Of a stretch of 64,000 nt of DNA, positions 12,110-34,371 are shown piece after piece. Origin of the DNA: an uncultured delta proteobacterium (GTDB taxonomy: Bacteria; Myxococcota; Myxococcia; Myxococcales; Myxococcaceae); NCBI GenBank assembly GCA_963776345.1, contig CAVZMH010000013.1, positions 1-64,000 of the forward strand. Reading direction: 5' to 3'. The notes below the pieces were generated by a model. The model did not search any database and had not been told where the DNA came from. It saw nothing but the letters and a program-made list of their open reading frames with translations. The position numbers and the translations under genes are program-made. Each line of letters starts with the position of its first letter. Within the stretch, counting starts at the first letter, position 1.

Positions 12110-12121
12110 CCACCCGTCCAG

Positions 12122-14656: not shown

Positions 14657-14660
14657 GGGC

Positions 14661-14993: not shown

Positions 14994-15068
14994 GCTAGGC
15001 CGTCCGGGAGGGTTGGAGGCCCCGATGGAACTCTCGAGCGAGTGCTGGGAGAGGAAGCGAGGCGCCGG

Positions 15069-15329
15069 ATGAGCCAGCACGGACTGCCAACGCCCACGGA
15101 GCTCGTCGACGCACCGGAACCCGAGGCCGAGCTCGCGACTGTAGGGGAGGCAGCCCGCTTCCTGCGCGTTTCGAAGAGCTGGCTCTACGCCAAGGCGGCC
15201 GAGAATGCCGTTCCGCACGTGAGCGTCCTCGGCCGACTCCGGTTCCACATGCCGACGCTCCGGGCGTGGGTGCTCGGGCGATCCGAGCCGCGCGGAACCG
15301 TGCTTCCCTTCACCAGGAACGGACCGTGA
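15069..15329 (+). CDS. Excisionase/AlpA-like HTH protein upstream of the integrase
   Basis: LATVGEAARFLRVSKSWLYAKAAENAVPHVSVLGRLRF. Confidence 0.8.
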   Translation: MSQHGLPTPTELVDAPEPEAELATVGEAARFLRVSKSWLYAKAAENAVPHVSVLGRLRFHMPTLRAWVLGRSEPRGTVLPFTRNGP

Positions 15330-15369
15330 GTCAGCCGCTCGAGGTGTCATTGGCGGGAGGAGAACGGCG

Positions 15370-16827
15370 GTGGCCTACCAGCGCCAGGACTTGAAGGGAC
15401 GGAGCCGCTGGATCGCCCAGTGGACTGACCCGGCGACGGGCCGACTCCGGCAGAAGTCGGTCCGGGCGAAGGACAAGCGGGAGGCGGATCGGCTCGAGTT
15501 CGAGCTTCAGCGCCATGCGCAGCGGCAGCGCGAGGGCCTCGAGCCGCTTGGCTCGGACGCTGGAGCCGCGACGGTCGGTCGGCTCTTGGACCGCTGGCTC
15601 ACTGCGAAGCAGCACGCGCCATCCGCCGCGCGCGACGCCAGTGCGGTGCGCAAGCACCTCCTCGCCTCGGCCCTGGCGGACATCGTGGTGTCGCAGCTCA
15701 AGGCGTCGGACGTCGAGAACTTCCTGGACGAGAAGCTCGCCTCAGGGCTCGCCCCGCAGACGGTGAACCACCTCCGGGGGTACGTATCGCGCGCGTTCAC
15801 CACCGCCCGGCGCAAAGGCTGGTGGACGGGCGTGAACCCGGTGGCCGACGTGCAGCGCCAGCCAGTCCCCAAAGGCGTCGTCGGGGACTACCTCCGCGTC
15901 GAGGAGGTGCCGCTCGTCCTCGGGCAGCTTGCGCGACGCTGGCGGCCGCTCTTCGCCGCAGCGCTGTACACGGGGCTGCGAAAGGGCGAGCTCCGGGCGT
16001 TGCGGAAGGAGGATGTGGATCTGGAGCGCGGCCTCATCCTCGTCCGGCGCTCAGGTGCGCGGGCGACGACGAAGGGCGGGCACGCCGACGCCATCCCCAT
16101 CCACCCGGAGCTGGTGCCCTTCGTACGGCACGCCATCGACAGCTCACCGAGCCCGCTCGTCTTCCCAGGGCACGACGGCGGCATGTTCGCCGAGGACACC
16201 GACCTGGCCGCGGTGCTGCGCCGGGCGATGGCCCGGGCGGGCCTGGTGACGCACTGGACGCACGTCTGCCGGCGGAAGCGCTGCGCGCACCGGGAGGATG
16301 CGCCGGACAACGGCCAGCGGCGCTGTCCGGAGCACCGCTGCCTGCTCTGGCCGAAGCCGCACGTGCGCCCGATTCGGTTTCACGATCTCAGACACTCGGC
16401 AGCGAGCCTGCTCTTCATGGCCGGCGCGGACGCGGTGGCCGTCCAGAAGCTTCTCCGGCACCGCGACCTCCGGCTCACGACCGAGACCTACGGCCATCTG
16501 GCTCCCGGCTATCTCCAGGCCGAGCTCGGCAAGCTGCGGCTCCTCGGCGAAGCGAAGACGGCGGAGCTCGTCCCGCGGGCCGCCGTCGCGAGCGCTTCCC
16601 GCACGGCAGATTCACGGCAGACCGATCGGGGACGACGAACCGCCCGGCGAAAGGCGGCGGGATTTCCGCCCGCCTTTCAGGCGCTTCGACTGAGCGGGAG
16701 ACGGGGGTCGAACCCGCGACCCTCGGCTTGGGAAGCGCATCGGCGGCGATTCCGCCGCTTCCACGGGTTCAGACCGGTTGCGCCCGGGTCGTCATTCCGT
16801 GGGGTTGGCGACGGCACGGGCGGCTGA
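15370..16827 (+). CDS. Tyrosine recombinase/integrase of element B; reads through the middle att site
   Basis: GLRKGE, TTK, FHDLRH, LRH and TYGH catalytic motifs; SAM-like domain (LAPQTVNHLRGYVSRAF). Confidence 0.93.
   Translation: MAYQRQDLKGRSRWIAQWTDPATGRLRQKSVRAKDKREADRLEFELQRHAQRQREGLEPLGSDAGAATVGRLLDRWLTAKQHAPSAARDASAVRKHLLASALADIVVSQLKASDVENFLDEKLASGLAPQTVNHLRGYVSRAFTTARRKGWWTGVNPVADVQRQPVPKGVVGDYLRVEEVPLVLGQLARRWRPLFAAALYTGLRKGELRALRKEDVDLERGLILVRRSGARATTKGGHADAIPIHPELVPFVRHAIDSSPSPLVFPGHDGGMFAEDTDLAAVLRRAMARAGLVTHWTHVCRRKRCAHREDAPDNGQRRCPEHRCLLWPKPHVRPIRFHDLRHSAASLLFMAGADAVAVQKLLRHRDLRLTTETYGHLAPGYLQAELGKLRLLGEAKTAELVPRAAVASASRTADSRQTDRGRRTARRKAAGFPPAFQALRLSGRRGSNPRPSAWEAHRRRFRRFHGFRPVAPGSSFRGVGDGTGG
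16597..16626 (+). promoter_or_regulatory. Paired CACGGC repeat, candidate arm-type site of element B (integrase side)
   Basis: Matches 1533-1564. Confidence 0.65.
16692..16736 (-). repeat. att site (middle copy), junction between elements B and A; 45-bp duplicate of the tRNA-Gly 3' half
   Basis: Identical to 33429-33473. Confidence 0.95.
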
Positions 16828-16871
16828 CCCCCTTCCATCGGCTCCACTGGTTCCACCGGATCCGCTCCCGT

Positions 16872-16893
16872 TTGCTTCACCGCTTGCTTCAGG
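16872..16893 (+). promoter_or_regulatory. Paired TTGCTTCA repeat (12-bp spacing), candidate arm-type site of element A
   Basis: ttgcttcaccgcttgcttcagg matches ttgcttcaccccttgcttcacc at 33338-33359. Confidence 0.7.
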
Positions 16894-16939
16894 GGTCCGG
16901 GGGCAGAGCCCCGTGCGGCTCGGCGAAGCCCGGCGCCTC

Positions 16940-17095
16940 ATGACCGTTCACGAGGCGGCCGAGCGGCTCCGAGTACGGCCGGTGACGGTGTACCGGCTTT
17001 GTGCGCGTGGCACCCTGCCCCATCTGCGCGTCTCCAATGCCATCCGCCTGCGGGTCGAGGACCTCGAGGACTTCGTCCACAGGGATGGTCGATGA
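16940..17095 (+). CDS. Excisionase-like HTH domain; frame is open from the att core (16736) and in frame with integrase A on the excised circle
   Basis: MTVHEAAERLRVRPVTVYRLCARGTLPHLRVSNAIRLRVEDLEDF; no stop between 16736 and 17093. Confidence 0.8.
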   Translation: MTVHEAAERLRVRPVTVYRLCARGTLPHLRVSNAIRLRVEDLEDFVHRDGR

Positions 17096-17218
17096 ACTCG
17101 AGCGACAATGCCCTCAAGAGGATCCCCATTCGGCACCTCGGTTGCGGAAGTGGTGCGGCGGGCAGTCGACCAGGACTGTGGTGTGCTACTCCGTCCGGCA
17201 ACCGCGACGGGAGGGGCG

Positions 17219-18864
17219 ATGCACCGCGCAGCCAGTCTCTTCGTCGTCCTACTCTTGCCCGCGGCAGCCTGGAGTTCGCCGCCCGCGCCCGTCGACACGG
17301 TCTACAGGAACGGCAAGGTCTTCACGTCCGACCCGTCCCATCCGTGGGTGGAGGCCCTCGCCGTCCGAGGCGACCGCATCGCGGCCATCGGGAGCAACGA
17401 GGAGATTGGCCGGCTGGCCACTGCCGGAGTCCGGCGTGTCGACCTCGCGGGCCGCAGCGTCATCCCCGGGCTCAACGATGCCCACCACCACTTCGGCGAC
17501 GAGCCGGACGACACCCTCCAGCTCGAGACTTCGCCGGGGGCAACCTGGGCCGAGGTGGCGTCCGCCGTGGGCGCTCGGGCGTCAAAGACGCCGGGCAAGG
17601 CCTGGATCGTCGGGGAGATCGGCCCCAAGGCCTGGTTCGATCCCAAGGCCACGCGGGAATCCCTGGACGCGCTCGCTGGGGACCATCCGGTGGCGCTGCA
17701 GACACTCGGGAGTCATGGGGCCCTCGTCAACACGGCTGCGCTCAGCGCCGTGGGCCTGGGGACGACCCCGCCCGATCCGCCGGGAGGGTGGTTCGAGCGG
17801 ACGGGCAAGAGCTCCACGACGAACGGCCGGCTGCTCGAGTCGGCCTGCTTCGACTTCGACGTCCGCCGGCAGAAGCGGGTCGACCCCGCGACCGTCCGCC
17901 GTGACTTCCAGGACCTCGTGGTCCGCAAGGTCCGGCTCGGGTGGACCAGTCTGCAGACGATGGCCACCGTGCGGGTGACGGAGATGGTTCCGCTCGCCGT
18001 CGCCCATGCCGCTCCGCTCCGCATCCGGGTGATGCGTTTCCCGATCAACACCGCCGACACGGAGGAGATCGCGGCCCGGTCCGGGCCATACCCCCGCCCG
18101 GCTCCTCCGTGACCGTCTCGGGCCTGAAATGGTTCCTTGACGGGACTCCAGCCGAGAAAACGAACGCCATCCGCGGAACCTTCCCCGACGGGACAAAGCC
18201 GCGGCAGATCTACCCCCCGGCCCAGGTGCGCTTCATGCTCCAGCAGGGAGAGACGCTGCACCAGCCGCTGCTCTTCCATGCCGGCGGCGAGGCGGCCATT
18301 GACGAGCTCTTCACGGCCATGGAGTCGATGCCGGGGATCGACTGGCCGGCTCGCCGCGTTCGCATCGAACACGGCGACGAACTCCGGCCCCCGATGTTCG
18401 CCCGCGCCAAGCGGTTGGGAATCGTCCTGGTCCAGAATCCCTTCCACCTCGCGTTGCCACCGGGCATGCCCCGGACCACCCTTGCCCGAGCCTTCCCGCG
18501 CGGACCGGCGCAGCTCCTCCGGTCGGTGGTGGAAGCCGGCATCCCATTCGCCCTGGGCACGGACGGGCCGGACGACCCCGCACTGAACATCCTTCTGGCG
18601 GCGACGAACCCCAACAACCCGGATGAGGCCCTCACCCGGGAGCAGGCTGTCGTCGCCTTCACCCGGGGCGCGGCCTATGCCGAGTTCGCCGAGAAGGAGA
18701 AGGGCACCCTCGCACCCGGCATGCTGGCCGACTTCGTGGTGCTCTCGAAGGACATCTTCACCGCACCGGCCGCGGACGTCCCCACCATCCGACCAGTGCT
18801 CACCGTCATCGGCGGCAAGGTGGCCTTCGACGCCGTCGCCCCGCAGGACGCCGGGACGCGCTGA
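17219..18864 (+). CDS. Secreted amidohydrolase 3 (YtcJ-like), frameshift near 18100
   Basis: VDLAGRSVIPGLNDAHHH, KWFLDG, RIEHGD, ALGTD and KGTLAPGMLADFVVL across two frames. Confidence 0.85.
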
Positions 18865-18999
18865 CCCCTGTGCCAGAGGAGGTTGGCGGCCAGCGCCACG
18901 CCTCCGACGCAGACGGCGCCGCGGACCGAGGCGCTCCAGCCCATCGGGCTCGCCTTCGACACGGCATGCGCAAGGAGGAGCTCCTAGCCCTACGCCGGG

Positions 19000-19162
19000 A
19001 GCAGGTCGCTCTCGATCGCGACCCGACCGACGCTCTTACCGGTCTCTCGCACTAGCTTGACGGCCTGTGCCTTGAACTCCGGGGTGATACTCCTCCGCGC
19101 TCGCATCCCGATGGCGGACATGTACGTCTTTCCGTGGTCTCGACCAAAGCAGCGGAAGCCCA
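19000..19162 (-). pseudogene. IS3-family transposase orfA 5' fragment
   Basis: MRARRSITPEFKAQAVKLVRETGKSVGRVA is a typical IS3 orfA HTH start and is truncated shortly after. Confidence 0.7.
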
Positions 19163-19206
19163 CATCGTTCGAGACGCCGTCGGCCAGGCTTCGAGATCGC
19201 GCGGCT

Positions 19207-20976
19207 TCAGTGGCCGCCGTGCGGCTGCCACACCGGCGCGCCGTCTTCCCACTGGTTGTCGGTGAGCTGTTCGACCTCACTGCCGTCGACGCGCATGACG
19301 AAGATGTCACCGTACGGCTGCGGGTTCTGGGTGTTCAGCGCCTCGTCTTTGAATCCGGCACGGCTGCTCGTGAACACCAAGTGCTCGCCATCGGGGGAGA
19401 AGCTCGCGTGGGCATCGATGCCGCGGGTGTGGGTGAGGCGGCGCAACCCGCTGCCATCCGGATGGATGGTGAACACGGAAAAGTCATCGCCCACCTTGCG
19501 CGTGAACGCGATCAGATTATCGCGCGGTGACCAGGCGGGGAAGTTGTCCCGCTCGCGAGTCAATACGGTGATCGAATGATCGGCGAGGCCCATGAGCCGC
19601 AGTCCCTGGCCCAGGGGGCCGGAGGTGCGGAACACGATCCGCCGGCCCTCGGGCGCAAGCGAGGCGAAGGCGTTGTCGTTGGCGTCCGCGGTCAGGAACG
19701 TCAGCCCCGTCCCGTCCGCGTTGAGGAGGGCGAGCTGCGCCTTGCCGCTCCGCGTCGCCGGCACCACATGGAAGCGGCTGAGGTTGCCCACGGTCACCAG
19801 GATCTGGTGGCCATCGGCTGTCCATTGCGGCGACAGCAGTGATTCGGCGCTCCTGTAGACCTCACGCGGTGGCTGGCCCTCATCGACCACGTACAGGCCC
19901 ATCGTCTTGCCTGGCGCGCGCACCGTGACGGCAAAGCGCTGGCCGGAGCGATCGTAGGCGGGGAAGAAGGCACTTCCAATGAGCTCATAGCGCGGATCCC
20001 TGCTGTGCAGCGCATGCGGGGCAACCGCGAGGTCCCCCGCGAGCCGGCTGTACACGATGCGGGACCCGTCGGGGGACCAGGAGGGGGTGGCAAGGTCATC
20101 TCCCTTCGGTCCACGGCGGCCGCCCTCGTAGAACACGCCTGGCCGGTCGACCCCAACCCAGGCCAATGCACCGGACGGCAGCAACGCCGGGGAGATCATG
20201 ATGCCGTCGCCCGCGGCGATGCGGGTGTAGCGACTGGTGGCGACGTTCAGGCGCAACAGCTGCGTGGCCCCCCGCTGCGTACCGGTACGGAATCCGAACG
20301 AGGCCTCCGACGTGCCGCAGTAGACGATGAGGCTGGCGCTATCGCTCGACCAGCGCGGGCCGCCGCAGAATCCTCCGTGGGCCGAGATGCGCCTGAGCCC
20401 GCGTCCGTCGGGGTGCACGACGTACACATCCAAGAGTTGCAGTCGCTCCCAACCACCCGCGGTGGCCGGCTGGGGACTGTCGCGGTCCGAGGAGAAAGCG
20501 ATCCACTGCCCGTCGGGTGACCAGGCCGGGCGAAAATCCCCGCCTCCGCCCGCGGTCAGAGGATGCACGGCCCGCGTGGCAAGATCGAGAATCCACAGGC
20601 GCGCCTGCCCGCCACCGCGTGTGGAGACGAAGACGATCTGCCGGCCGTCCGGCGAGAACGCTGCCTGGTCATCAAAAGCCGGATCATCCGTGAGGCGTTC
20701 CAGCCCCGTGCCATCCGGGTGGACGCGGTAGATATCCGCCGAGCCGGCCCGCTCCGAGGTGAACGCGATCCAGTCGCCAAGCGCGGACCAGGCTGGGTTG
20801 TAGTCGACGTTGCCGGCGCCGGTCAGCGGCTCCTCGTGCGTTCCATCGGCGTGCGCGATGTAGAGACGACCCGCGGTGGGCGCGAGGCTCATGAACAGGA
20901 TGCGCTCAGCAGCGGCGGCGGCGCCATTGATGCCCAGCACGGCGGCCATCAGGAATCGGATACCCACGGCGCTCAT
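19207..20976 (-). CDS. TolB-like beta-propeller protein (PD40 repeats), exported
   Basis: Repeated PAWSPDG/AFSPDG motifs; signal-like N-terminus from ATG 20976. Confidence 0.85.
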   Translation of the reverse strand: MSAVGIRFLMAAVLGINGAAAAAERILFMSLAPTAGRLYIAHADGTHEEPLTGAGNVDYNPAWSALGDWIAFTSERAGSADIYRVHPDGTGLERLTDDPAFDDQAAFSPDGRQIVFVSTRGGGQARLWILDLATRAVHPLTAGGGGDFRPAWSPDGQWIAFSSDRDSPQPATAGGWERLQLLDVYVVHPDGRGLRRISAHGGFCGGPRWSSDSASLIVYCGTSEASFGFRTGTQRGATQLLRLNVATSRYTRIAAGDGIMISPALLPSGALAWVGVDRPGVFYEGGRRGPKGDDLATPSWSPDGSRIVYSRLAGDLAVAPHALHSRDPRYELIGSAFFPAYDRSGQRFAVTVRAPGKTMGLYVVDEGQPPREVYRSAESLLSPQWTADGHQILVTVGNLSRFHVVPATRSGKAQLALLNADGTGLTFLTADANDNAFASLAPEGRRIVFRTSGPLGQGLRLMGLADHSITVLTRERDNFPAWSPRDNLIAFTRKVGDDFSVFTIHPDGSGLRRLTHTRGIDAHASFSPDGEHLVFTSSRAGFKDEALNTQNPQPYGDIFVMRVDGSEVEQLTDNQWEDGAPVWQPHGGH

Positions 20977-21592
20977 GACCTTCCGCAGCGCGGGTAAAGT
21001 CGTTGGGCGAGTTCGTCCCGGAGCCTGAGCCAGACGAGGGGGAGGAAGTCTGGCCGGAGGTGCTCGGCGGGCGTGCCCACGCCTCGGAGGGTAGAGCAAT
21101 CGAGGCCCGTCGTCAGACTTGGTCCCGGAGTCCGTACCTCTGTTGCGACTGTATGAGTTCTTGCAGAAGTCTGCTGGTCGGGCCTCTAGGCCGACGGTTG
21201 CGTGTTCGGTCATGCCGAGTCGCTCGTCGCCGAGCCGTGCGCTCGGTGGGGCTACCAGCCTTGTTCTTCCTCACCTCGGAAAAGCGGATAGTTGTTGCCG
21301 CCCCTCCGGGCGAGGGGACAATTTCTGGCGTCTGCTCTGCCTCCGGAGGCGGAATGCGGTCCGGGTGGAGGCGAAGGCCGACCGACGTAGGTCGCGCTCC
21401 GCGAGGTCAGACGTGTGCAGGTCACTGAAGGCAGGCAGAGCCTGAACGCCGCGGAGTGCGGACCGCGTCGTTACCCGGGGGTGCGCGGCGTGGTCGCCGC
21501 CGTGCCGGGAACCACTTCACCCCCGGCTGAGGCCGGGGCTTCCTGAAGGCCGCGATGTCCTCCGGCGCGCATGTTCTGCGTGAACCCGGGGC

Positions 21593-24022
21593 ATGGGCCC
21601 CAAACTCGCCTCCCGGACGGTTCTCCCCTTCCTGGCCGCACTTCTGTTCGGCTGCTCGGGCGGCGGATGCGGATTGGAACCCCCGCGTGCGGGGCCCGGT
21701 CCCTTCGGGATGCGCTCTGCTCAGCAGATCGAAGGTGGGATGCAGCTCCGGCTCACCGCCGCCGGAGTGCAGCGTCTGGCCGCCGGGCTGGCACCCGCCA
21801 TCGACAGCGCGCTCGGCGCGGTGTGCGTGCCGCCGATCACCTACTCCGAGGGTTCGGACTGCTTCGGCACCCAGGTGACGATCTGTGGCCACCCCGACTG
21901 CCCGGGTGGCCAGCTGGGCTGTCCGATCGCCATCCGGCCGATTCCGGATGGGCTCGCGGTCGACGCGTTCTCCGACGCGGGAACCCCGGGCCTCGCGCTG
22001 GCGCTCCTCTTCGATGCCGAGGTCAACGCCAAGGTGGACTTCACCACCTCGCTCGCCTGCATCTCTTCGTCGGCCAGCTGCACCCTCGCCGTCACCTCCA
22101 ACCACCAGGTCGATCCGACCCGGCCCCCCCTCCGGGGAACCGCGCACATCGTTCTTTCCATCGACCCGGTCAGCGGAGCGCTGGACGCAACCGTGACGGA
22201 TGCCGCGATCGACACCACTGAGCTCGGCGCGACCGGTTGCGCCGGTCTTGGCTCCGTGGTCACGGCCTTCCTCCCCGACGTCGGGGCAGAGCTGTCCAGG
22301 GTCCTCACCGGGACGCTGAATCCGGTGCTCGCCGCTGCACTGCCGGTCCCCGCCGGCATCGCCGGAACCCTCGACCTGGGACAGCTCCTAGGACCGGCCG
22401 TGCCACCCGACACCAGCCTCGAGGTGCTCGCGGTCCTCGGCGGGTGGGTCCAGGCCCCGAACGGCGGCCTCTCCGTCGGCGTGCTCGCCGGGGCGAACAG
22501 CGACCGCGACCCGGCGACGCGCACGCCCGATGCTTCCTCGGAGCCCTCGGCGTGCGTCCCCGGCTTCCCGAGCACGCTTGACCTGGGGGCCGCGCCCCAC
22601 GCGCTGCCCTTCAATCCGGGACGGCAGGACTACCTCCTCTCGCCCGCCGACCAGAGCCTGGGGGCACCCGAACCTCTCCTCTCCGACGGGGGGCTGGCGG
22701 ACTTCTCCCTGGCCGTCTCCGAAGATCTCCTCGCGCTCCATGCGTTCCACGTCACGAGCGGAGGCCTCCTCTGCTTCGGCGCGTCCGACCCCGGCTTTCT
22801 CACCCTGGGATCGCTCTCAACGCTCGCCGAGGTGAGCGGTTCCGGGCGCGACGCCTACCAGTCACCGCTCACCGTTGCTCTCCGCCCGACCCAGCCGCTT
22901 CGGATCCAGCTGGGCAGCGGCGAAGCGGGCGATCCGTTGCTCCAGCTCCGCCTGAACGGCGTCGGCGCAGCCCTGGTGGCGGATGGCGGCTCCGCCGTCG
23001 CTCCGGGCGCGGACGTCACGCTCGGCTTCGACCTCGAGGTGATTCCCACCGCTTCGGGCCTCGCCCTGGAACCGTTGCTCGTCGCGGTGGACGTCGCCGA
23101 CGGGGGAAGCTGGCAACAGGCCATCGCCGGCGCAGCCGAGCTGCTGGCAGGCTCGGTGGTCACGCCGCTCCCGCTGCCCTCGGTTCCCGGGCTGTCCGCG
23201 GAGGCCGTCACGCTCCAGCGGTTCGACACCACCCAGTCCCGGTTCCTCGCGATCCAGGGGGCCTGGAGTGCGTCAGCTCCGGCCCGGACGCAGACGGTCG
23301 ACGCGGTCGGTGCGGTGACCTCCGTCGTCGCCCCGGGACTCGACGGCCTGCGCGCCGCCGCCGCGGGGGACGGGGACGGCGGAGTGCCCGCGGTCCGGCT
23401 GGCGCTGCAGGGCGACGCCGGGCCCACCGAGTGGAGCGTGCGAGTGGATCGCGCGCCCTGGCACGCCTGGAGCTCCGATCCGGCACCGGTGGTCACCGAT
23501 CCGCTGCTGTTTCTCCAGGGCCACCACGTCATCGAGGTGCGGGCACGCATTCGGGGAGCCCCGCTGTCCACCGGCGGGCAAACCCTTCGGCTCCCGGTCC
23601 TGCTCGACACCGTCCCTCCGACGCTCGAGCCAGGAGTGGACCCCGACGACGGGACGCAGATCGCCTTCAACGCGCGGGACTTCGTCTCTCCGCCCGAGGC
23701 GATGCAGTACGCCTGGAAGGCGGGTGACCGGAGCAACCCCTTCACCGCGGCGAGGACAGTCGCCGTCGCCGACGCGCTGGCCGCGACGTCACAGGGGAAG
23801 TTGGCGCTGGTGCTGATGGCGCGCGACGAGGCGGGGAACATCGGCCAGGCGTCGTTCGACGTCTCCTCGCTGACCGGGACCAAGACCGGTTGTGGCTGCA
23901 CCAACACTTCCGGGGCCGAGCTCGGCCCCGGGCTCGCCCTGCTGTTGCTCGGGCTCCGGCGTCCGAGGCGGGGCCGATCTGCACCACCACCGCCATCCGC
24001 CGGTGGTCCGGAGCGACCCTGA
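21593..24022 (+). CDS. Large exported Cys-containing (lipo)protein with MYXO-CTERM-like anchor
   Basis: LLFGCSGGGC N-terminus; C-terminal GCGCTNTSGAELGPGLALLLLGLRRPRR. Confidence 0.75.
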   Translation: MGPKLASRTVLPFLAALLFGCSGGGCGLEPPRAGPGPFGMRSAQQIEGGMQLRLTAAGVQRLAAGLAPAIDSALGAVCVPPITYSEGSDCFGTQVTICGHPDCPGGQLGCPIAIRPIPDGLAVDAFSDAGTPGLALALLFDAEVNAKVDFTTSLACISSSASCTLAVTSNHQVDPTRPPLRGTAHIVLSIDPVSGALDATVTDAAIDTTELGATGCAGLGSVVTAFLPDVGAELSRVLTGTLNPVLAAALPVPAGIAGTLDLGQLLGPAVPPDTSLEVLAVLGGWVQAPNGGLSVGVLAGANSDRDPATRTPDASSEPSACVPGFPSTLDLGAAPHALPFNPGRQDYLLSPADQSLGAPEPLLSDGGLADFSLAVSEDLLALHAFHVTSGGLLCFGASDPGFLTLGSLSTLAEVSGSGRDAYQSPLTVALRPTQPLRIQLGSGEAGDPLLQLRLNGVGAALVADGGSAVAPGADVTLGFDLEVIPTASGLALEPLLVAVDVADGGSWQQAIAGAAELLAGSVVTPLPLPSVPGLSAEAVTLQRFDTTQSRFLAIQGAWSASAPARTQTVDAVGAVTSVVAPGLDGLRAAAAGDGDGGVPAVRLALQGDAGPTEWSVRVDRAPWHAWSSDPAPVVTDPLLFLQGHHVIEVRARIRGAPLSTGGQTLRLPVLLDTVPPTLEPGVDPDDGTQIAFNARDFVSPPEAMQYAWKAGDRSNPFTAARTVAVADALAATSQGKLALVLMARDEAGNIGQASFDVSSLTGTKTGCGCTNTSGAELGPGLALLLLGLRRPRRGRSAPPPPSAGGPERP

Positions 24023-24082
24023 TCCGGCCCCCTTCCCGGGCGATGCCGGCAGTCCCTCCCGGCGGCGAAGTAGTCTCCGGGC

Positions 24083-24601
24083 ATGTCCAGCGGTGGAGTC
24101 GCCTCCCCAGGGGAGAGCTTCAGCGCCGTCTACGCAGTGCTCCGGCGGCTGGCGACCCAGCAGCTTCGACGCCGCGGACCGGGCACCCTGGAGACCACCT
24201 CGCTGGTCCATGAGGCCTGGATGCGACTGGCGCAGAAGACCCATTTCGAGAGCCGTGGACACTTCCTCGCCGTGGCGGCGACCGCGATGCGCCAGATTCT
24301 CGTCGACCACGCACGGAAGCGCCAGGCGGAGAAGCGCGGCGGCGGCGCGGTCTTCGTCACTTCCGGGCTCGGGGAGGCGAAGGTGGAGGCCAACGTGGAG
24401 CTGGTGCTCGGTGTCCATGCTGCGCTCAGCAAGCTCGAGGCGCTCGATGCCCGGCTGGCCCGGATCCTCGAGTGGCGCTTCTTCGCCGGGTTGGACGAGG
24501 AGGAGATCGCCAAGGCGCTGGACGTGGACGTGCGAACGGTCCGCCGTGGATTCCGCAAGGCCCGCGCTTTCGTCCTTGCCGACTTCTCCGAGCTGCCATG
24601 A
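24083..24601 (+). CDS. ECF-type sigma factor of the kinase-associated type
   Basis: LETTSLVHEAWMRL, HFLAVAATAMRQILVDHAR..KRGGG, RFFAGLDEEEIA. Confidence 0.9.
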   Translation: MSSGGVASPGESFSAVYAVLRRLATQQLRRRGPGTLETTSLVHEAWMRLAQKTHFESRGHFLAVAATAMRQILVDHARKRQAEKRGGGAVFVTSGLGEAKVEANVELVLGVHAALSKLEALDARLARILEWRFFAGLDEEEIAKALDVDVRTVRRGFRKARAFVLADFSELP

Positions 24602-27051: not shown

Positions 27052-27102
27052 GGCGTCCGGTGGGGGTGTCCTCTCCCCTGCTCCGATTGCGTGAACCTGG
27101 GC

Positions 27103-28263
27103 ATGACGCCCACCACCCAGCGGATGCTCCTGGCCCCTCTCGCCCTCTGTTGCACCCTCGTCGCATGCAGCGGGGGGGGCTCCCCGAACACCGGGGGTCC
27201 CCCCGACGCCGGTGCCGGGGGATTCGGATTCTCGCCCTCCAACGTGGACCCGTCGCAGCTCGATTTCAGCAACGTGGGAGACCTCATGGTCACCTCGGAC
27301 CGGACCTGGGAGACGGGCAACGGTGGACTACTGGGGAGCGACAACGCCGCCGGGTACCACTACCGGGAGGTCTCCCAGCTGACGACCAACCTCAAGCTCG
27401 GCGTCTTCACCGTCCGCTCTCTCACCATCGCCGCCGGCAAAACGGTTCGCGTGGTCGGCCCGGACGCTCTGGTGATCGTCGCGCTCGACCGCATCGACAT
27501 CCAGGGAAACCTCTTCGGCAACTCCCAGTTCGTGCCCGCCTTTCTCGGACCGGGGGCGGAGCAGAATCCGCCTGGCGACAACACCCCGGGCGTCGGAGCC
27601 GGTGGGGGTGGTACTGGCAGCGACGATTCATCGGGGGGTGGTGGAGGGTTCTGCGGCAAGGGTGGGAAGGGGGCCTCGCTGGCCCCGGGCGGTGATGCCC
27701 AGGGAGGGGGGATGAACGGAACCCCGTTCCTCGTCCCGCTCACCGCCGGGTCTGCCGGCGGATCGGGCGCCGGGCCGGGCGGTGCAGGGGGAGGGGCGAT
27801 CCAGCTCGTCGCCGCGAACGCCATCGCCGTCCCCGGGAAGATCCACGTGGGCGGCGAGGGCGGCTACACCGGTGGCGTCTACAATCCAGCCGGCTCGCAG
27901 GAAGCCGGCGGCGGCGGGAGCGGTGGGGCGATCCTGCTCGAGGCGCCCTCGGTGCAGATCACCGGAACGCTGGCGGCGAACGGCGGAGGTGGGGGGCAAG
28001 GCGACGGCACGTTCGGAGCCGACGCCACCCCCGACTCCACCGCGGCCAAGGGCGGCAACGACGGCATGCACGGGTCGCTCGGCGGCGACGGAAGCTCGAG
28101 CAGCGGCATCGACGGTGAGGATGGCAAGGTGGACCCCGACACGACCGCCGGTGGTGGAGGCGGTGCTGCCGGCCGGATCCGCATCAACAGTCGTCCCGAC
28201 GGCTCCTTCATCGGCGGGACAATCTCGCCGTCGTCCATCTGCACGACCCTGGGAACGCTCTGA
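27103..28263 (+). CDS. Glycine-rich lipoprotein
   Basis: LVAC lipobox; GGGAIQL, GGGGSGGAILL and GGGGAAGRIRI repeats. Alternative start at 27091. Confidence 0.75.
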   Translation: MTPTTQRMLLAPLALCCTLVACSGGGSPNTGGPPDAGAGGFGFSPSNVDPSQLDFSNVGDLMVTSDRTWETGNGGLLGSDNAAGYHYREVSQLTTNLKLGVFTVRSLTIAAGKTVRVVGPDALVIVALDRIDIQGNLFGNSQFVPAFLGPGAEQNPPGDNTPGVGAGGGGTGSDDSSGGGGGFCGKGGKGASLAPGGDAQGGGMNGTPFLVPLTAGSAGGSGAGPGGAGGGAIQLVAANAIAVPGKIHVGGEGGYTGGVYNPAGSQEAGGGGSGGAILLEAPSVQITGTLAANGGGGGQGDGTFGADATPDSTAAKGGNDGMHGSLGGDGSSSSGIDGEDGKVDPDTTAGGGGGAAGRIRINSRPDGSFIGGTISPSSICTTLGTL

Positions 28264-28414
28264 ACTCGTTCTCAGTGGCCCCGGCGCTGGCGTCCGTCTG
28301 ACGGCAGCCGGCTCCGCCGTCCTCGCCCGACTCCGCCACCCGGGCGAGCTGCGCCTTCACCGCCGCCAGGGCCACGGTGTTCCCCTCCTGGACGTAGCCC
28401 TCGCTGAAAACCCC

Positions 28415-28641
28415 TCCCGCAATCGATTGCGGGACCGTGCTTTGGGAGCTCGAACTGGCTCTCGAATCGGCCCGAAAATACGCTCCACAGTACGCTCCCG
28501 GATCGGGCGCATTCTCGGGCCGTTTCCCGGGCGGTAAGCGGGGCGGATTCAAGCGGCCGTCGTCAGGCATTTCGGGCCCTTCCGCCCTCGCCCACCCGTT
28601 TCGCATGCAGCACGGAGAGCACCCCCAAATTCGACGGGGTG
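28415..28641. other. Conserved non-coding block (candidate oriT) with 20-bp palindrome tcccgcaatcgattgcggga
   Basis: Inverted homologue of 3613-3886; lies just upstream of a relaxase-like fragment. Confidence 0.6.
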
Positions 28642-28744
28642 GGCGAGGGCGAAAAGAGTTCATCAGGAGAGTCCGGAGGAGGGCGAAGGCAAAGAGCAGA
28701 GTGGTACGGACCGGATACATGGGTGACAGACCAGACCGGAGCCG

Positions 28745-29020
28745 ATGGGGACAGAGGAGCTCGAGCTGACCGGTCGGCCTGGGCGACTGAGGCGAAAGGA
28801 CCGACAGCTGGTTGGCGCACTTGGATTCGGTCGGTACCTGACCATCCAGCAAGTCATCGAACTCCGAGTGGGCGCGAGGACGGAGAAGGCCACCGGGTAC
28901 AGGCTCCGTGGACTCGCCGGCGAGGAAACCAGGTCCAAGGTGCGGGCGTCGAGGCCCGCGCTGTTGAGACGCTTTCCCTTCCGTTCCTTCGGGGGCGAGC
29001 GGCTGCACCTGTGGGCATGA
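28745..29020 (+). pseudogene. Truncated replication-relaxation (Replic_Relax-like) protein N-terminus
   Basis: KDRQLVGALGFGRYLTIQQVIEL...TGYRLRGL...HLWA resembles the winged-helix start of Replic_Relax proteins; ends after 91 aa. Recognised by eye. Confidence 0.5.
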
Positions 29021-29178
29021 GCTTCACCCTTTGGTACTACCGATGGACGATGATCCTGGAGACGCTCCAGCAGGCCGCCGCCTCACCCGGCGTGAACGCG
29101 ACGGACGGGCTGCTCGACGTTCGGCTTCGTCCTCTCGCCATTCTTCGGATCAAGCAGCGTCGATAGGGGGGAGGATGG

Positions 29179-30519
29179 ATGCACGACAGAGCTCGTAGTC
29201 ACGTTCGTGCGGGGTCGTGGATGTTCGTCACCCTGCTGCTGCTGAGCAGCGGTGTTCTGCTCGCGCAGCCGCCTTCGCCCGACGACGGCCCCGCGGCGCG
29301 GCAGTTCGCGAGCTGGCTGGCGCTCTTCAATAAGGGCGATCGCGCCGCGCTGGAGGCGTATCACCGGCAGGCGTTCGCCTACAGCGCGGCCCCTCCGGAG
29401 CTCGGCAACATCGAGCGCGAGCTCTCGCTGCTCCTCGAGACGGCCGGCTTCGACATCAGGAAGCGCGAACGGGGTTCGGCGACCCAGTTCTCCGCCATCC
29501 TCAGCGATCGCGCGACGCACCTGTTCGCCCGCGCCACCATGCGCGTCGAGGCGGCCGGGCCCCATCGCGTCCTCGACTTCGCGCTGGTGCCCATTGCCAC
29601 GCCCGCCGAGTACCAGGTGCCCGAAGGGCCGCTCGATGCCAAGCGGCGGCTGGCGCTCCTCGACGCGGCGGCGCGGGCGATCGAGGCCAACTACGTCTTC
29701 CCCGACGTCGGCCGGCGCATGGCCGCGGCTCTGCGCGAGCGCGGCGCGCGCGGGGACTACGAGCACATCAGCGACTGCACTGCCTTCGCCGCCCGGCTGA
29801 CCGACGACTTGCGCGCGCTGTGCCACGACAAGCACATGCGCGTCACCTACAAGGATGGGCTGCAGCTGCCGCCCTCGGACGGGGGTGGGCAGGGCCTCGG
29901 CTTTGGCGACATCGAGCGGCTTCATGACAACATCGTTCGCATCGCCATCAGTGGCTTTCCGCCTGTGCGCTTGGCCCGCGACGCGATCGCCGCCCTCATG
30001 TCGAACGTGGCCGATGCCGACGCGCTCATCATCGACTTGCGCGCCAATCACGGCGGCGATCCGTCGACGGTCGCGGTGGTGGCCAGCTACCTCTTCGACG
30101 ACCAGCCCGTGCACCTTAACGACGTAATCGAGCGCGACGGCACTATGCGGACGTTCTGGACCGAGCCCACAGTGGCCGGCAAGCGCTTCGGCGGCAACAA
30201 GCCGGTGTATGTCCTCACCAGCGCGGAAACGTTCTCGGGCGGTGAGGAGCTCGCCTACGATCTGCAGAGCCTGCATCGCGCGACTCTCATTGGCGAGACG
30301 ACCGGCGGCGGGGCCAATCTTACCGGCGCGCACACGCTCGACGATTGGTTCGTGATCGGCGTGCCATGGGCGCGCCCCATCAATCCGGTGACCAAGACCA
30401 ATTGGGAAGGTGTCGGAGTGCGGCCCGACGTGGCGACGAAGGCGACCGCGGCGCTCGACGAGGCGGTGCGACGGGCGGCGCTCGACATCGGTTTGACGCC
30501 GGCGCGTTCGCCCAACTGA
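29179..30519 (+). CDS. S41-family peptidase (IRBP-like), exported
   Basis: LIIDLRANHGG, VYVLTSAETFSGGEELAY, IGETTGGGAN, NWEGVGVRPDV. Confidence 0.9.
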   Translation: MHDRARSHVRAGSWMFVTLLLLSSGVLLAQPPSPDDGPAARQFASWLALFNKGDRAALEAYHRQAFAYSAAPPELGNIERELSLLLETAGFDIRKRERGSATQFSAILSDRATHLFARATMRVEAAGPHRVLDFALVPIATPAEYQVPEGPLDAKRRLALLDAAARAIEANYVFPDVGRRMAAALRERGARGDYEHISDCTAFAARLTDDLRALCHDKHMRVTYKDGLQLPPSDGGGQGLGFGDIERLHDNIVRIAISGFPPVRLARDAIAALMSNVADADALIIDLRANHGGDPSTVAVVASYLFDDQPVHLNDVIERDGTMRTFWTEPTVAGKRFGGNKPVYVLTSAETFSGGEELAYDLQSLHRATLIGETTGGGANLTGAHTLDDWFVIGVPWARPINPVTKTNWEGVGVRPDVATKATAALDEAVRRAALDIGLTPARSPN

Positions 30520-30796
30520 GCGAACGCTACGGCCTATCGCCGCCCGTTGCTCGCCCCGGAGGGTGCTCGGCCGGCACGCGGCGCCCGCATGCCGGAAGCC
30601 AGGGCGTAGCAGAGCCCGGGGACCCGGACCGCGCGGGCGCGCCTGTCGCTCGCCGGTCGCCCACTCCCTCAGGGAGAAGCGTCCGGCTCGCAAGGAAGAA
30701 AACACCCGTCCGCCGCATTGCTTGAAACGGCGCCTCGGAGGCAGGGCGGGCCGTTTTCGGCCGTTCTGGGGGGGTTCCGCGCGCGTGTCCGTAACC

Positions 30797-30996
30797 TCAC
30801 TGCGACCCTCCGCGACCGATGAAAGCATCCAAGTCCTCCTGCCAGACCCGGATGGCGTTGCTGACCCGGATAGCCGGGAGCTGCCCCCAGCTCACCAGCC
30901 GGTACACGGTGGCACGGCACACCCCGAGGGCGTCGGCCACCTGGGGCGCGGTGAGCAACCGCCCTCCCCCACCATCGACCGCTCGCAGTGTCGGGA
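30797..30996 (-). CDS. Third excisionase-like HTH domain (orphan arm of a relic element); start uncertain
   Basis: RLLTAPQVADALGVCRATVYRLVSWGQLPAIRVSNAIRVWQEDLDAF, homologous to 1563-1751 and 16940-17095. Confidence 0.7.
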
Positions 30997-31132
30997 TGGG
31001 TCCCACGGGGGTCCCACGCGGAGCCGTCCAGGGGCATCCAACACGTCGGGAACTGGCTCCGGCGGGGTACTCAGCCGCAGTTCTCTCGACCGGTTGGACG
31101 CTGGCGCACGTGGTGGATGGCTCGAGCGCCCC

Positions 31133-31174
31133 CTCCGGAGCCAAAGGTCACAGGTTCGAATCCTCTATCGCACG
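31133..31174 (+). pseudogene. 3' half of a tRNA-Arg(CCG), probable relic att site
   Basis: ctCCGga loop, gccaa, aggtc, acagg-ttcgaat-cctct T-arm (one mismatch), then 7 nt plus discriminator; no 5' half upstream. Confidence 0.75.
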
Positions 31175-31277
31175 AACGCCGGAGGGATCGGCAGTTCACG
31201 AGGTCTTTCTCGGTCGCTTCCGTTAGTACCCCACGCGCGAGCCGTAAACGCCTGAGAAACGCAAGCCACGCGCTCGC

Positions 31278-31308
31278 TTGACTATGAGTTCTAATTGGAA
31301 TCTACTTA
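31278..31308 (+). promoter_or_regulatory. Candidate promoter/operator of the element A backbone operon
   Basis: TTGACT-N17-TCTACT with imperfect palindrome ttctaattggaa; homologous to 14626-14656. Confidence 0.65.
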
Positions 31309-31312
31309 GGAG

Positions 31313-31645
31313 ATGGGAAGGACTCCTCTCCCGCGAGACGAAGCGCTCCAGCCGCTCAACGTGAAGGTCCCGTCCGAGGACCTCTACTTCGTCCAGGAAG
31401 TCCTCAAGCCGGCCCTCGGTGTCTCTTACAACGCCGAGGCGGTCCGGGAGGTCCTGGTCCAGCTCCGGACCTGCTTCCGCCTCCCCCAGTACGTCGTTGA
31501 CGTTCTCGAGGCGGAGATGAAGGCGAAGAAGCTCAACATCCTCGGGTACGTCCAGGAGCTGCTGCTTCGCCGCTACGAGGCCCTCCGCGACAAGCCCGAC
31601 AGCGCGAAGAAGGGCCCGGCTGGCGCTCGCCACCGCCCCCGCTAG
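31313..31645 (+). CDS. Tandem RHH-like element protein (paralogue of 14661-14993)
   Basis: 89/93 aa identical to the element B copy. Confidence 0.75.
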   Translation: MGRTPLPRDEALQPLNVKVPSEDLYFVQEVLKPALGVSYNAEAVREVLVQLRTCFRLPQYVVDVLEAEMKAKKLNILGYVQELLLRRYEALRDKPDSAKKGPAGARHRPR

Positions 31646-31888
31646 ACACTCGCAACGCCCCGGGAGGGCAGGAGGTCCCATGGGACGCTCGACCGAGGGA
31701 TTGGAACTCTCCACCCGGCGGGCGATGCCGAACAGCGTCACGCCCCCTCTGCCGCATGGCGGCGGCACGGGAGCCTCGCCACTCGACCATCACCAGCCCG
31801 CTCCACCAGCGACCGCTCACGAGTTGAAGACCGTTCTTGAGGCCGCGGCGAGCTCCGCTCCACGGAAGCTCCTGGCTCGGGGCCAGGA

Positions 31889-32131
31889 ATGAGCGCTCGG
31901 CATCAGGGCGAGCAGCCCACCCGGCATGGGCTCTGGGACGCGCGGGACGTGGCCTGCTTCCTCAAGTGCTCGCCGAGCGCCGTCTACCGCTGGGCCGAAC
32001 TCGGGCAGATTCCCTGCCGCCGCATCGGCACCCTGCTCCGCTTCAAGCCCGAGGAGGTCGAGGCTTGGCTCGACCGGAACGCCAGCGCGTCGATTCTCCC
32101 CTTCCCCCGTCACGCTGGCGGGCGAGAATAG
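31889..32131 (+). CDS. Excisionase/AlpA-like HTH protein upstream of the integrase
   Basis: LWDARDVACFLKCSPSAVYRWAELGQIPCRRIGTLLRFKPEEVEAWL. Confidence 0.85.
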   Translation: MSARHQGEQPTRHGLWDARDVACFLKCSPSAVYRWAELGQIPCRRIGTLLRFKPEEVEAWLDRNASASILPFPRHAGGRE

Positions 32132-32134
32132 GCC

Positions 32135-33490
32135 ATGGCTGACCCGTTCCTGTTCCGAGGTCGGTGGTTCCTCCGGTTCCAAGACGAGACCGAGCGGTGG
32201 AGGCAGCGGCCCTCGGCGGCTCGGACGAAGACCGAGGCGAAGCGCCTTCAGGCCGAGTTGGAGTACCAGATCGGCCGTCGTCGCCTCGGACTCGAGGGCA
32301 CTGTGTCCGCGGAGGTGTCGACCCTCGGCGAGCTGCTCAAGCGCTGGCTGCGCGAGACATCCTCCACAGCGTCCGCCTCGAAGAACACGAGCGCGGTCGC
32401 GAAACACCTGCTCGGCGAGGCCCTCGCGACAAGGCGGCTCGATCAGGTGCGGACGGCGGACGTCAATGACCTGATCGCCCGGAAGAGCAGCGAGGGACTC
32501 GCGCCGCAGACGGTGAACCACCTGCGGGGGTTCCTCTCGCGGGCCTACTCGATGGCGATTGAGCGCGGTTGGTGGACCGGCGCCAACCCGGTTGCGAGGG
32601 CGAAGAAGCTCGCCATTCCTGAACTCGACCGCGACGAGCGCGAGTGGCTCCGCGAGGAGGAGTTCCGCGGGGTGCTCGAGGAGTTGGATCCGCGCTGGCG
32701 GCCGCTCTTCGCGACGGCCGTCTACGGCGGTCTTCGAAAGGGCGAGCTGCGTGCGCTCCGCAAGGACGCCATCGACTTCGAGGTCGGCTGCATCAAGGTC
32801 GCTCGGAGCGGCGGTCGCAGGACGACGAAGAGCGGCAAAGTGCGCCGTGTGCCCATCCACCCGGAGTTGCTCCCCTACCTCCAGCGCGCGGTCGACTCGT
32901 CGCCCTCCGCCGCCCTGGTCTTCCCCGGCCCGGACGGAGAGATGATGCGCGAGGATGCGAAGCTGCAGGCCGTCCTACGACGCGCCTTGGCCCGCGCCGG
33001 CATCGTCAACGGGTATGAGCACCGCTGCCGGAAGCACGGGTGCAAGCACTGCGAGCGGCACTCCGACCAGGACCAGCGCCGGTGCCCGAAACACAAGGTC
33101 ATCCTCTGGCCGGTGCCCGTCCACCGGAAGGTCCGGTTCCACGACCTGAGGCACACGGCCGCCTCGCTCTACCTCGGCGCCGGGGTGGACCCAGTCGTCG
33201 TCCAGCGGACCCTCGGGCACGCCGATGTGACGATGACGGTCGGCCGGTACGGGCACTTCCGGCCCGAGCACGAGCTGCGGCAGTTGTCGAAGCTCCAGCT
33301 CGGGATCCCAGCGCCGGAGCCCGTGTCCCGGGAATCCTTGCTTCACCCCTTGCTTCACCCCGACGCCGGACACTCGAAGGCCCCGACCGCGCCCGCCGAA
33401 ATCGTGAGCGCTGCCGGGGCCTTCCAGAGAGCGGGAGACGGGGGTCGAACCCGCGACCCTCGGCTTGGGAAGCCGATGCTCTACCACTGA
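32135..33490 (+). CDS. Tyrosine recombinase/integrase of element A; terminates inside the antisense strand of tRNA-Gly
   Basis: GLRKGE, TTK, FHDLRH, LGH and RYGH motifs; the last 20 codons overlap the tRNA. Confidence 0.93.
   Translation: MADPFLFRGRWFLRFQDETERWRQRPSAARTKTEAKRLQAELEYQIGRRRLGLEGTVSAEVSTLGELLKRWLRETSSTASASKNTSAVAKHLLGEALATRRLDQVRTADVNDLIARKSSEGLAPQTVNHLRGFLSRAYSMAIERGWWTGANPVARAKKLAIPELDRDEREWLREEEFRGVLEELDPRWRPLFATAVYGGLRKGELRALRKDAIDFEVGCIKVARSGGRRTTKSGKVRRVPIHPELLPYLQRAVDSSPSAALVFPGPDGEMMREDAKLQAVLRRALARAGIVNGYEHRCRKHGCKHCERHSDQDQRRCPKHKVILWPVPVHRKVRFHDLRHTAASLYLGAGVDPVVVQRTLGHADVTMTVGRYGHFRPEHELRQLSKLQLGIPAPEPVSRESLLHPLLHPDAGHSKAPTAPAEIVSAAGAFQRAGDGGRTRDPRLGKPMLYH
33338..33359 (+). 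promoter_or_regulatory. Paired TTGCTTCACC repeat, candidate arm-type site of element A (integrase side)
   Basis: Matches 16872-16893. Confidence 0.7.
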
Positions 33491-33501
33491 GCTACTCCCG
33501 C
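33430..33501 (-). tRNA. tRNA-Gly (anticodon CCC), CCA not encoded
   Basis: Reverse complement GCGGGAGTAGCTCAGTGGTAGAGCATCGGCTTCCCAAGCCGAGGGTCGCGGGTTCGACCCCCGTCTCCCGCT folds as a full cloverleaf. Confidence 0.97.
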
Positions 33502-33590
33502 GGACGGCGCGATCGAGGTACTACGACCGGGCCCCCCGGTTCAAGCCGGTTGATCCCAATCGCGGGCCGGCGTGACTACCGTACCTTCCG

Positions 33591-34371
33591 ATGGCGCGCA
33601 TCCTGGTCGGGACCAGCGGATACCTCTACCGGGACTGGCGGAACGTGCTGTACCCGCCGGGCCTCGGCACCGGGCGCTGGCTCCAGCGGTACGCGAGCGT
33701 CTTCCCGACGCTGGAGCTCAACACCACCTTCTACCGGCTCACCACGGCCGTGGCCGCCGCCCGCTGGCGCGACGCGACGCCACCCGGCTTCGTCTTCACC
33801 GTCAAGGGCAGCCGGTACATCACTCACATGAAGAAGCTGAAGGACCCCGCCGCGGCGCTCGGAGCGCTTCTTCGCCCCACTCCGGCCGCTGCGGCCGAAG
33901 CTGGCGGTGGTTCTGTGGCAGCTCCCGCCCCGATTCGACGTGGACGCGCTGCCGCGGCTGGACGCCTTCCTCGCGGCACTGCCACCTGGTGTCCGGTACG
34001 CGGTCGAGTTCCGCGAGCCGAGCTGGTACCTCCCCGAGACCTGCGAGGTGCTCGACGCGCACGGCGCGGCATTCTGCGAGCACGACCTCGTCCCGCTCCC
34101 CCCGCCCCGGCTCACCGGTGGCTTCCGCTACCTCCGCTTTCACGGCGCGGGCGCGAAGTACGGCGGCCGTTACGGCCCCGCGGCGCTCGACCCGGTCGCC
34201 CGCGACCTCCTCCGGACTCGTCGCCGGGGCAAGGACGCCTACGTCTTCTTCAACAACGACTTCTGCGGTCACGCGGTGCACGACGCGCTGACGCTCCGCG
34301 AGGCGCTGGGAGAAACGATGCGCCTTGACACCCCCCACCCCGACGGACAAAAGCCCGGGGCCACTCCATGA
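33591..34371 (+). CDS. DUF72 (YecE-like) protein, frameshift near 33860
   Basis: VGTSGY, ELNTTFY, KGSRYITH, then LWQLPP, AVEFR, YLRFHG, YVFFNND in the next frame. Confidence 0.85.

Follow-up and report, generated by a model that had tools for sequence, protein, structure and literature searches.

A predicted integrase-HTH fusion, divided upon integration, in a family of myxobacterial islands inserted at tRNA genes

The analyzed window (the whole stretch of 64,000 nucleotides, from a soil myxobacterium) carries a mobile DNA island inserted at tRNA-Gly(CCC), and it raises the question of whether the integrase at one end of the island and a helix-turn-helix (HTH) domain at the other are parts of a single gene joined upon excision, and of what the exchanged C-terminus would do. 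The two att copies proposed in the initial annotation were recovered, as 16692-16736 is identical to 33429-33473 over 45 bp, 16,737 bp apart. A third copy, absent from that annotation, was found at 1389-1431, and the three copies indicate two elements in tandem, B (1389-16736) and A (16692-33473). The att crossover of element A corresponds to the anticodon loop, with flanking sequences differing immediately beyond the anticodon. The features of the array are the following:

1389-1751, plus strand: HTH end of element B, with att core (1389-1431), linker, arm pair (1538-1556) and tail HTH (1587-1751)
14661-16736, plus strand: Int end of element B, with a regulator-like gene, a free Xis-like gene (15042-15329) and integrase B (from 15370)
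16692-16736: att core of element A on its HTH side, corresponding in antisense to the 3' part of tRNA-Gly CCC
16737-16930, plus strand: linker, an open frame that is stop-free in the Int frame and also the long arm of attP
16872-16891, plus strand: arm-type direct repeat pair (TTGCTTCA) on the HTH side
16931-17095, plus strand: tail HTH_17 (Pfam HTH_17, TIGR01764), a winged HTH that is the C-terminal domain of Int in its excised form
17108-30828: cargo of element A, with an amidohydrolase split over two frames, a TolB-like PD40 protein, an 809-aa ORF without family, a Ser/Thr kinase-TPR protein and an S41 peptidase
30806-31163, minus strand: orphan end left by a further member of this element family, inverted inside A, with a tRNA-Arg fragment (31132-31163) and a tail-type HTH (30806-30961)
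31313-31645, plus strand: 110-aa gene without family, probably a regulator, with 86% identity to 14661-14993 of element B
31889-32131, plus strand: free Xis-like HTH_17 gene directly 5' of int, in the position of Mx8 uoi
32135-33490, plus strand: tyrosine integrase A (PF00589), integrated form, 451 aa
33338-33359, plus strand: arm-type direct repeat pair inside int, sharing its word pair with 16872-16891
33429-33501, minus strand: intact tRNA-Gly(CCC), including the Int-end att core (33429-33473)

No conjugation, capsid, terminase or replication families were detected in the subset of ORFs scanned inside the att pair (Pfam, NCBIfam), and promoter and terminator scans found nothing. No read or contig joining the att pair was found in four of the runs listed, which were soil and sediment metagenomes (shares ≤0.18) and included no RNA data set, and there was no empty attB among the same-genus loci read at tRNA-Gly, each of which was occupied by an Int tail.

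Integrase A carries the residues R201, K232, H336, R339, H362 and Y372, all upstream of the att core, and its fold matches lambda Int and Tn1549 Int. In agreement with the initial annotation, its frame is open through the core, which sits within it, and enters the antisense strand of the tRNA. When attP was rebuilt in silico and translated, a protein of 565 aa was obtained, with 0 internal stops and a C-terminal HTH_17; integration thus swaps a 119-aa tail for 5 aa (565 vs. 451 aa). The Xis-like character attributed to the tail was borne out by the match of 16736-17092 to Pfam HTH_17 (E 3.6e-12), as was that of the second, free gene upstream of int (31889-32131, E 3.7e-11). At att2, however, two of the three frames are open (~200 nt, 70% GC), and since an open frame is cheap at this length and composition, the single locus is little proof and a comparative test carries the case.

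Of 201 genomes of the order, 90 contained IntA homologues, and the HTH search covered 80 of those 90. Pairs were picked by hand among the matches listed, outside which lie 14 Int and 183 HTH matches; before counting, four pairs whose ends had no core of ≥15 bp in common were dropped, together with three farther HTHs of an already counted Int (two out of frame, one in frame). For 45 of the 47 integrated elements, drawn from 36 genomes, Int and the distant HTH joined in frame, stop-free, compared with 8 of 18 junctions between neighboring elements, and chance sharing of the frame was rejected on this comparison, as was the idea, raised beforehand as a possible refutation, that homologues might not conserve the frame. 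All three frames were used across the tRNA (24, 12 and 7 elements, plus 2 unassigned). A minimum of 13 frame changes was counted on the Int tree (41 rows), and the HTH frame moved with them. Moreover, 48 of 58 tail-type HTHs had a tRNA antisense core ≤300 nt upstream, and by hand count the HTH frame was open to that core in 46 of these 48, vs. 34 of 96 for the other frames. One of the two out-of-frame pairs is element B of the window, whose tail is put out of frame by homopolymer runs at 16628-16652 that are together two bases longer than in the G040 orthologue; it was rejected as a counter-example to the frame rule, given that the HTH-B frame is the one used in three related tails of the B type. 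The two bases were not among the indels listed for the four metagenome runs.

The targets in relatives were tRNA-Gly, Arg, Pro, Asp, Val and Met, elements measured 4-18 kb in 39 single-locus cases, and tandem arrays were common. Single proteins combining Int and HTH_17, the search for which had been suggested in the initial annotation, do exist: seven of the best 120 IntA homologues were natural fusions and four more were found. Mx9 Int is a further example, as is a remnant of the B type on contig C3. With a natural fusion as query, one scan of viral contigs returned three weak partial loci; with the tail as query, named genomes returned six loci, including one full-length match at 67%, while the tail alone had no match at E 0.01 in a phage collection, even though the Mx9 HTH_17 was found there by profile. 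Judged by sequence, the Int-HTH fusion appears to be real, conserved and under selection.

The same counts bear on the possibility that the HTH forms a small gene of its own next to att, encoding a free recombination directionality factor (RDF) and sharing the frame incidentally. An ATG is found at 16940, at the start of the domain in element A, some start codon lies within 25 codons in 40 of 47 tails, and many tail ORFs are called as stand-alone genes in databases. Yet the ATG of element A is without a Shine-Dalgarno (SD)-like word, an ATG within 25 codons was present in 14 of 47 tails and an SD-like start in 4 of 47, start positions are scattered, and seven tails have none at all. The N-termini of the database ORFs are likewise arbitrary (median 43 aa), 9 of 135 beginning at the domain. 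Together with the frame counts, these observations largely refute a separate gene, which we consider highly improbable; the tail lacks a conserved start of its own, unlike a small free excisionase or RDF.

The free Xis-like gene was found upstream of int in 38 of 43 full-length elements. Mean identity was 51% among tails, 37% among free Xis and 30% between tail and free Xis, and by these sequences the tail HTH constitutes a family distinct from free Xis. The tail is under purifying selection (dN/dS 0.24, 10 pairs), with the recognition helix as its best conserved stretch. This last feature weighs against a switch acting through stability or oligomeric state, in which the integrated tail would be a degron, or the HTH an oligomerization module with DNA binding being secondary. 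Such a switch would agree with the short, often hydrophobic tRNA-derived peptides in which integrated-form Ints of the family end, and with the head-to-tail oligomers of winged HTHs described in the accessible part of PMC11963761; integrated tails, however, extend 0 to 254 aa beyond the core, a spread too variable for one degron, and we regard this explanation as distinctly improbable.

Arm words of ≥9 nt were common to the two ends in 46 of 47 cognate pairs, vs. 18% of 327 cross pairs, and the linker showed a 10-bp periodicity (6.9% vs. about 2%). The type of tail recognition helix was associated with a linker motif (19/25 vs. 2/14, Fisher p 0.0005), a suggestive but post hoc comparison that did not reach significance in independent pairs (median p 0.375). 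In the model of a natural fusion (P0095), linker residues 377-508 had pLDDT <50 and are predicted to be disordered.

As the best explanation overall, element A is, on balance probably, an integrative island that targets tRNA genes and belongs to a large family in myxobacteria, with an int gene spanning attP. The circular form encodes Int, a flexible linker of ~130 aa and a winged HTH, and the DNA that specifies the linker also serves as attP, with an arm pair, the core, 10-bp-spaced repeats and a second arm pair. Once integrated, the element retains an Int whose catalytic domain is complete and which ends in a short stretch of tRNA antisense; the HTH is cut off from it and has no conserved start. 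The likeliest reading is that integration is favored by the tethered HTH and excision is driven by free Xis, the effect of the tail being opposite to that of Xis. The tethered HTH would bind the helically phased repeats between the attP core and the far arm, and it may bend these repeats or keep free Xis off them, so favoring attP x attB recombination. In the integrated state only the tail-less Int would be present, which would require free Xis for excision and re-integrate poorly. The form of the enzyme would then be picked by the recombination state, with the tail as an integration factor and not an excisionase, given that Int carries it solely in the state that must integrate. Element A itself is without the helix-associated linker motif, which counts against this explanation. 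A more specific version, quite possible if short of probable, holds that, in a widespread Myxococcota integrase family, direction is set by two paralogous winged HTHs with opposing effects: free Xis would promote excision, and an anti-Xis, which recombination attaches to Int and detaches again, would bind phased repeats within the DNA that encodes its own tether. Tandem arrays would then give hybrid long forms.

Two further roles for the tail were weighed against this integration factor. The tail could be a state-specific transcription regulator of the xis-int operon, or of other element promoters, acting outside the intasome. Winged HTHs of the Xis family are often also regulators, according to the accessible portions of PMC7498355 and PMC11963761, and the predicted disorder of the linker does not imply a fixed contact between tail and Int. 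A regulator would nevertheless have no need of a tether to Int, whereas the frame was kept over the frame changes counted above; in addition, the phased repeats sit in attP itself and no shared word was enriched downstream of the tail HTH, so that a purely regulatory tail seems unlikely. The tail could instead be a true tethered excisionase, by which the long Int of the circle excises copies or tandem neighbors, blocks re-integration and amplifies excision. It does belong to the same Pfam and TIGR family as Xis, tandem arrays are frequent, and no other HTH_17 gene was found among the ORFs scanned beside int in phage Mx9, whose tail may thus be the sole Xis-like domain nearby. On the other hand, an incoming circle has the long form only and must integrate, Mx9 integrates with its fusion-type int (PMC10281127), and a separate free Xis-like gene is retained in most elements, all of which makes a tethered excisionase quite unlikely.

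The integration-factor reading provides a concrete candidate role for the swapped C-terminus of Mx8/Mx9-type integrases, a question dating from the 1990s, and one reducible to two protein forms and one 270-bp site. The split Int-HTH arrangement is the rule in a large family of myxobacterial islands (dozens of islands), and many genes annotated next to tRNA fragments as stand-alone excisionases probably represent orphaned tails of integrases. Should the preferred model hold, a site-specific recombinase would have been made one-way through editing its own gene; should the two-HTH version hold, frame-sharing neighbors in tandem arrays would yield hybrid chromosomal long forms, one island tuning the mobility of the next. 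The family targets at least six tRNA types and could widen the integration tools for myxobacteria.

Among known systems, the precedent named in the initial annotation, the C-terminal swapping of the Mx8 integrase, is textbook knowledge and stands, but HTH_17 was not detected in the Mx8 tail (at E 0.05), and the fusion in Mx9 Int (548 aa) had been overlooked. The excisionase-like C-terminus of Mx9 Int was reportedly remarked on by Julien in 2003. Mx9 Int (AY247757, OQ709411) was the best phage match to IntA among the matches listed (36.7%, residues 122-397); its frame continues across antisense tRNA-Gly(CCC) sequence at the anticodon loop, and an HTH_17 lies at 489-537 beyond attP, so the Int-HTH fusion is not new in kind. 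As stated in the available part of PMC6070905, Mx9 attP lies within int. Mx9 is, however, a 53-kb phage, and its attP has the tRNA 5' half with the HTH ~30 nt beyond, whereas the far smaller islands have the 3' half, and their linker, in most cases 160-190 nt long, contains phased repeats and an arm pair; element A, with the 3' half and 194 nt from core to HTH, differs from Mx9 in both respects. The literature search, with most subscription papers outside it, found no publication in which excision restores an Int-HTH fusion, and none on Mx9 with Xis or on a family-wide rule.

The Mx8 system (IntP/IntR, or IntX) resembles the islands in having attP in int, a C-terminus exchanged on integration (112 to 13 aa) and the free HTH_17 gene uoi (xis) immediately 5' of int, yet Mx8 Int was outside the best 25 phage matches listed and is missed by the family profile. 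The truncated Mx8 form is less active, as given in the accessible text of PMC4701971, and the tail is dispensable for excision, according to the title of Tojo and Komano (2003). These data concern a tail devoid of HTH_17, which counts against their transfer to the preferred model. Integrases of the SSV type are cut ahead of the catalytic domain, whereas in element A this domain stays whole and the DNA-binding tail alone is removed. The archaeal enzymes have att inside int, and integration interrupts the gene (PMC5861418, in its accessible part). In streptococcal rumA ICEs, attR lies within the integrase gene and the C-terminus differs after excision, but these are serine recombinases targeting a protein gene, and an HTH tail is not described in the available portion of the source (PMC4701971). 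The fold family of the tail is that of the winged-HTH RDFs (Pukovnik Gp37, 6ama, RdfS, Apl), Gp37 (4j2n) and 6ama being its nearest solved structures. These RDFs bind direct repeats one helical turn apart, according to the accessible text of PMC7498355, a spacing that matches the 10-bp-spaced repeats of the family linker; they are, however, free proteins that promote excision, whereas the tail of the island family is covalently bound to Int in the excised state only.

Two elements, A (16692-33473) and B (1389-16736), lie in tandem in the window, each with the gene order core, linker, HTH, cargo, 110-aa gene, free Xis-like gene, int and core. The att copies, the tRNA and integrase A are located as follows:

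1389-1431, 16692-16736 and 33429-33473: three copies of the 3' part of tRNA-Gly(CCC)
33429-33501, minus strand: tRNA-Gly(CCC)
32135-33490: integrase A (IntA), 451 aa, reading through the last att copy

A distance of 16,737 bp separates the second copy from the third, and joining them in silico resulted in a 565-aa frame with no internal stops, in which the 119 aa gained terminate in a Pfam HTH_17 domain. This stop-free Int-HTH product had been claimed in the initial annotation, and all of its numbers on int, att and the fusion were reproduced on recomputation. Both forms of Int keep the active site, since the catalytic residues precede the att core. Another HTH_17 gene is found directly upstream of int in element A. 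Based on matching element-specific direct-repeat pairs (the pair lying once within int, some 90 nt ahead of the core, and once more in the linker, roughly 115-135 nt beyond the core), the HTH at 16931 was assigned to integrase A and that at 1587 to integrase B.

At one GC-rich locus an open joined frame could be due to chance, two of the three frames behind the second att copy being open, and a comparative search across the order was therefore performed. IntA matched in 90 of 201 genomes, and 80 of these 90 were then searched with a profile of the tail. Among the matches listed, Int and HTH were paired when on the same contig and strand, and joined at their longest shared word; from 54 pairs, four without a core of 15 bp and three representing farther HTHs of an already counted Int were left out. 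The join was in frame and stop-free in 45 of 47 pairs, from 36 genomes including this one; the frame, whose loss in homologous elements had been named as evidence against the fusion, is thus conserved. The naive p value (1.7e-19) overstates the case, because related elements are not independent. Against chance, each of the three possible frames through the tRNA T-loop was used (24, 12 and 7 pairs; 2 without assignment), even at tRNA-Gly(CCC) alone, and a FastTree phylogeny of 41 integrases implied at least 13 changes of frame, yet the HTH still matched its own Int. Moreover, of 18 array junctions at which an Int directly adjoins the HTH of its neighbor, only 8 were in frame and open. Contig C3 carries a B-type int remnant that physically continues in frame into a B-type HTH. 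We regard the fusion as almost certainly real and under selection.

In both out-of-frame pairs, comparison with a close orthologue revealed small indels in the stretch from arm to core: a single base at locus L104, and two extra bases in homopolymer runs (16628-16652) of integrase B of the window, relative to the orthologue in genome G040. The latter possibly reflect real decay or assembly error, the second being conceivable because the amidohydrolase of element A (17108-18864) is likewise split over two frames. Together with a DUF72 gene matched over its first third only (33572-34350), this split hints at indels in the assembly.

That the HTH is a separate gene is very improbable. An ATG within 25 codons was present in 14 of 47 tails and an SD-like start in 4, while 7 had no start at all, and N-termini of database ORFs with the tail domain were scattered. 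A tRNA antisense core occurred within 300 nt upstream on the same strand in 48 of 58 distinct tail-type HTH hits (other strand, 2; downstream, 1/55), and the HTH frame was open back to it in 46 of 48, compared with 34 of 96 for the other frames (counted by hand). The tail domain is under purifying selection (dN/dS = 0.24, 10 non-overlapping pairs). The proposed search for single proteins with an integrase and a C-terminal HTH recovered natural fusions (7 of the best 120 IntA homologues, plus 4 more), which come without genomic context and may derive from circles or tandem arrays. In the AlphaFold2 model of one of them, P0095, the integrase portion has three parts and resembles that of lambda, residues 377-508 form a disordered linker, and the winged HTH is well folded. 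The IntA catalytic domain contains an insertion rich in Cys and His (33010-33110, residues about 295-325) that possibly binds zinc and is common to the natural fusions and the integrases of phages Mx9 and Mx4.

A free Xis-like gene preceded int in 38 of 43 full-length elements (three of the five misses had little upstream DNA), and free Xis-like proteins and tail HTHs form separate families; the tail being the true Xis in tethered form is unlikely. Between core and far arm, the linker DNA showed a 10-bp periodicity (6.9% vs. about 2%), and a word common to the linkers recurred at a constant distance from the core, a pattern described for winged-HTH directionality factors (PMC7498355). The two tail columns most strongly associated with this word are the initial residues of the recognition helix, an association that is post hoc and fails an independent-pairs test; no free Xis column was associated with it at p 0.02. 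Because the tail is attached only in the integrating state, with a free Xis-like gene maintained alongside, we somewhat favor a tethered integration factor, the direction of the effect being inferred. In the excised circle, Int would carry the tail in the state that must integrate, and the tail might bend phased sites in the linker, or keep Xis off them, favoring integration. A role as regulator is improbable, though less so than the tethered Xis, and a stability or oligomer switch slightly more doubtful than either.

No phage or conjugation families were detected among the cargo ORFs scanned, and homologue names pointed to myxobacteria. The 110-aa genes ahead of xis-int (31313-31645 and 14661-14993) are conserved, without Pfam or NCBIfam match, and more alike (86% identity) than the integrases of A and B (50%). 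At 30806-31163, element A contains, in inverted orientation, an orphaned end of a further family member, consisting of a tRNA-Arg fragment and a tail-type HTH, with no partner att copy found within the window. A protein of 234-bp (78-aa) tandem repeats (1-1390) terminates exactly at the first att copy, and a similar end flanks a degenerate core near 13,950 of contig C3. A perfect 28-bp hairpin and a 216-bp inverted pair common to elements B and A (3613-3886 and 28416-28631) are possibly insertion-sequence ends. The tRNA-Gly(CCC) gene (33429-33501; loci L153-L174) is an insertion hotspot in the genus: at each locus examined, the tRNA end was occupied by an integrase tail, and these tails were of at least three types and often occurred in arrays.

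The best phage match to IntA was the Int of Myxococcus phage Mx9 (548 aa), which reads through an antisense tRNA-Gly and has a terminal HTH_17, like the joined IntA form; the Mx9 paper reportedly noted an excisionase-like C-terminus. As its sequence derives from virion DNA (PMC10281127), Mx9 Int represents the excised-state fusion in a characterised phage. The phage Mx4 protein p07 (L002:2090-3466), which carries a hypothetical-protein annotation, is a related tyrosine integrase; it lacks an HTH tail, and a free HTH_17 gene precedes it. A review places attP inside Mx8 int, with Mx9 working in a similar way, and calls this a molecular switch (PMC6070905); PMC4701971 reports that Mx8 integration swaps 112 residues for 13 and that the short form is less active, and a title in the reference list of PMC11610982 states that the Mx8 tail is not required for excision. 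Unlike the joined IntA form, the Mx8 tail has no HTH_17. No report of a family-wide Int-HTH fusion was found in the literature searched, and closed papers may bear on this point. The fusion is real, conserved and selected, and the arrangement of element A is a variant of the Mx8/Mx9 scheme rather than a new kind; its breadth, the frame-tracking, the lack of a dedicated start for the tail and its pairing with a distinct, free Xis seem to be unreported so far.
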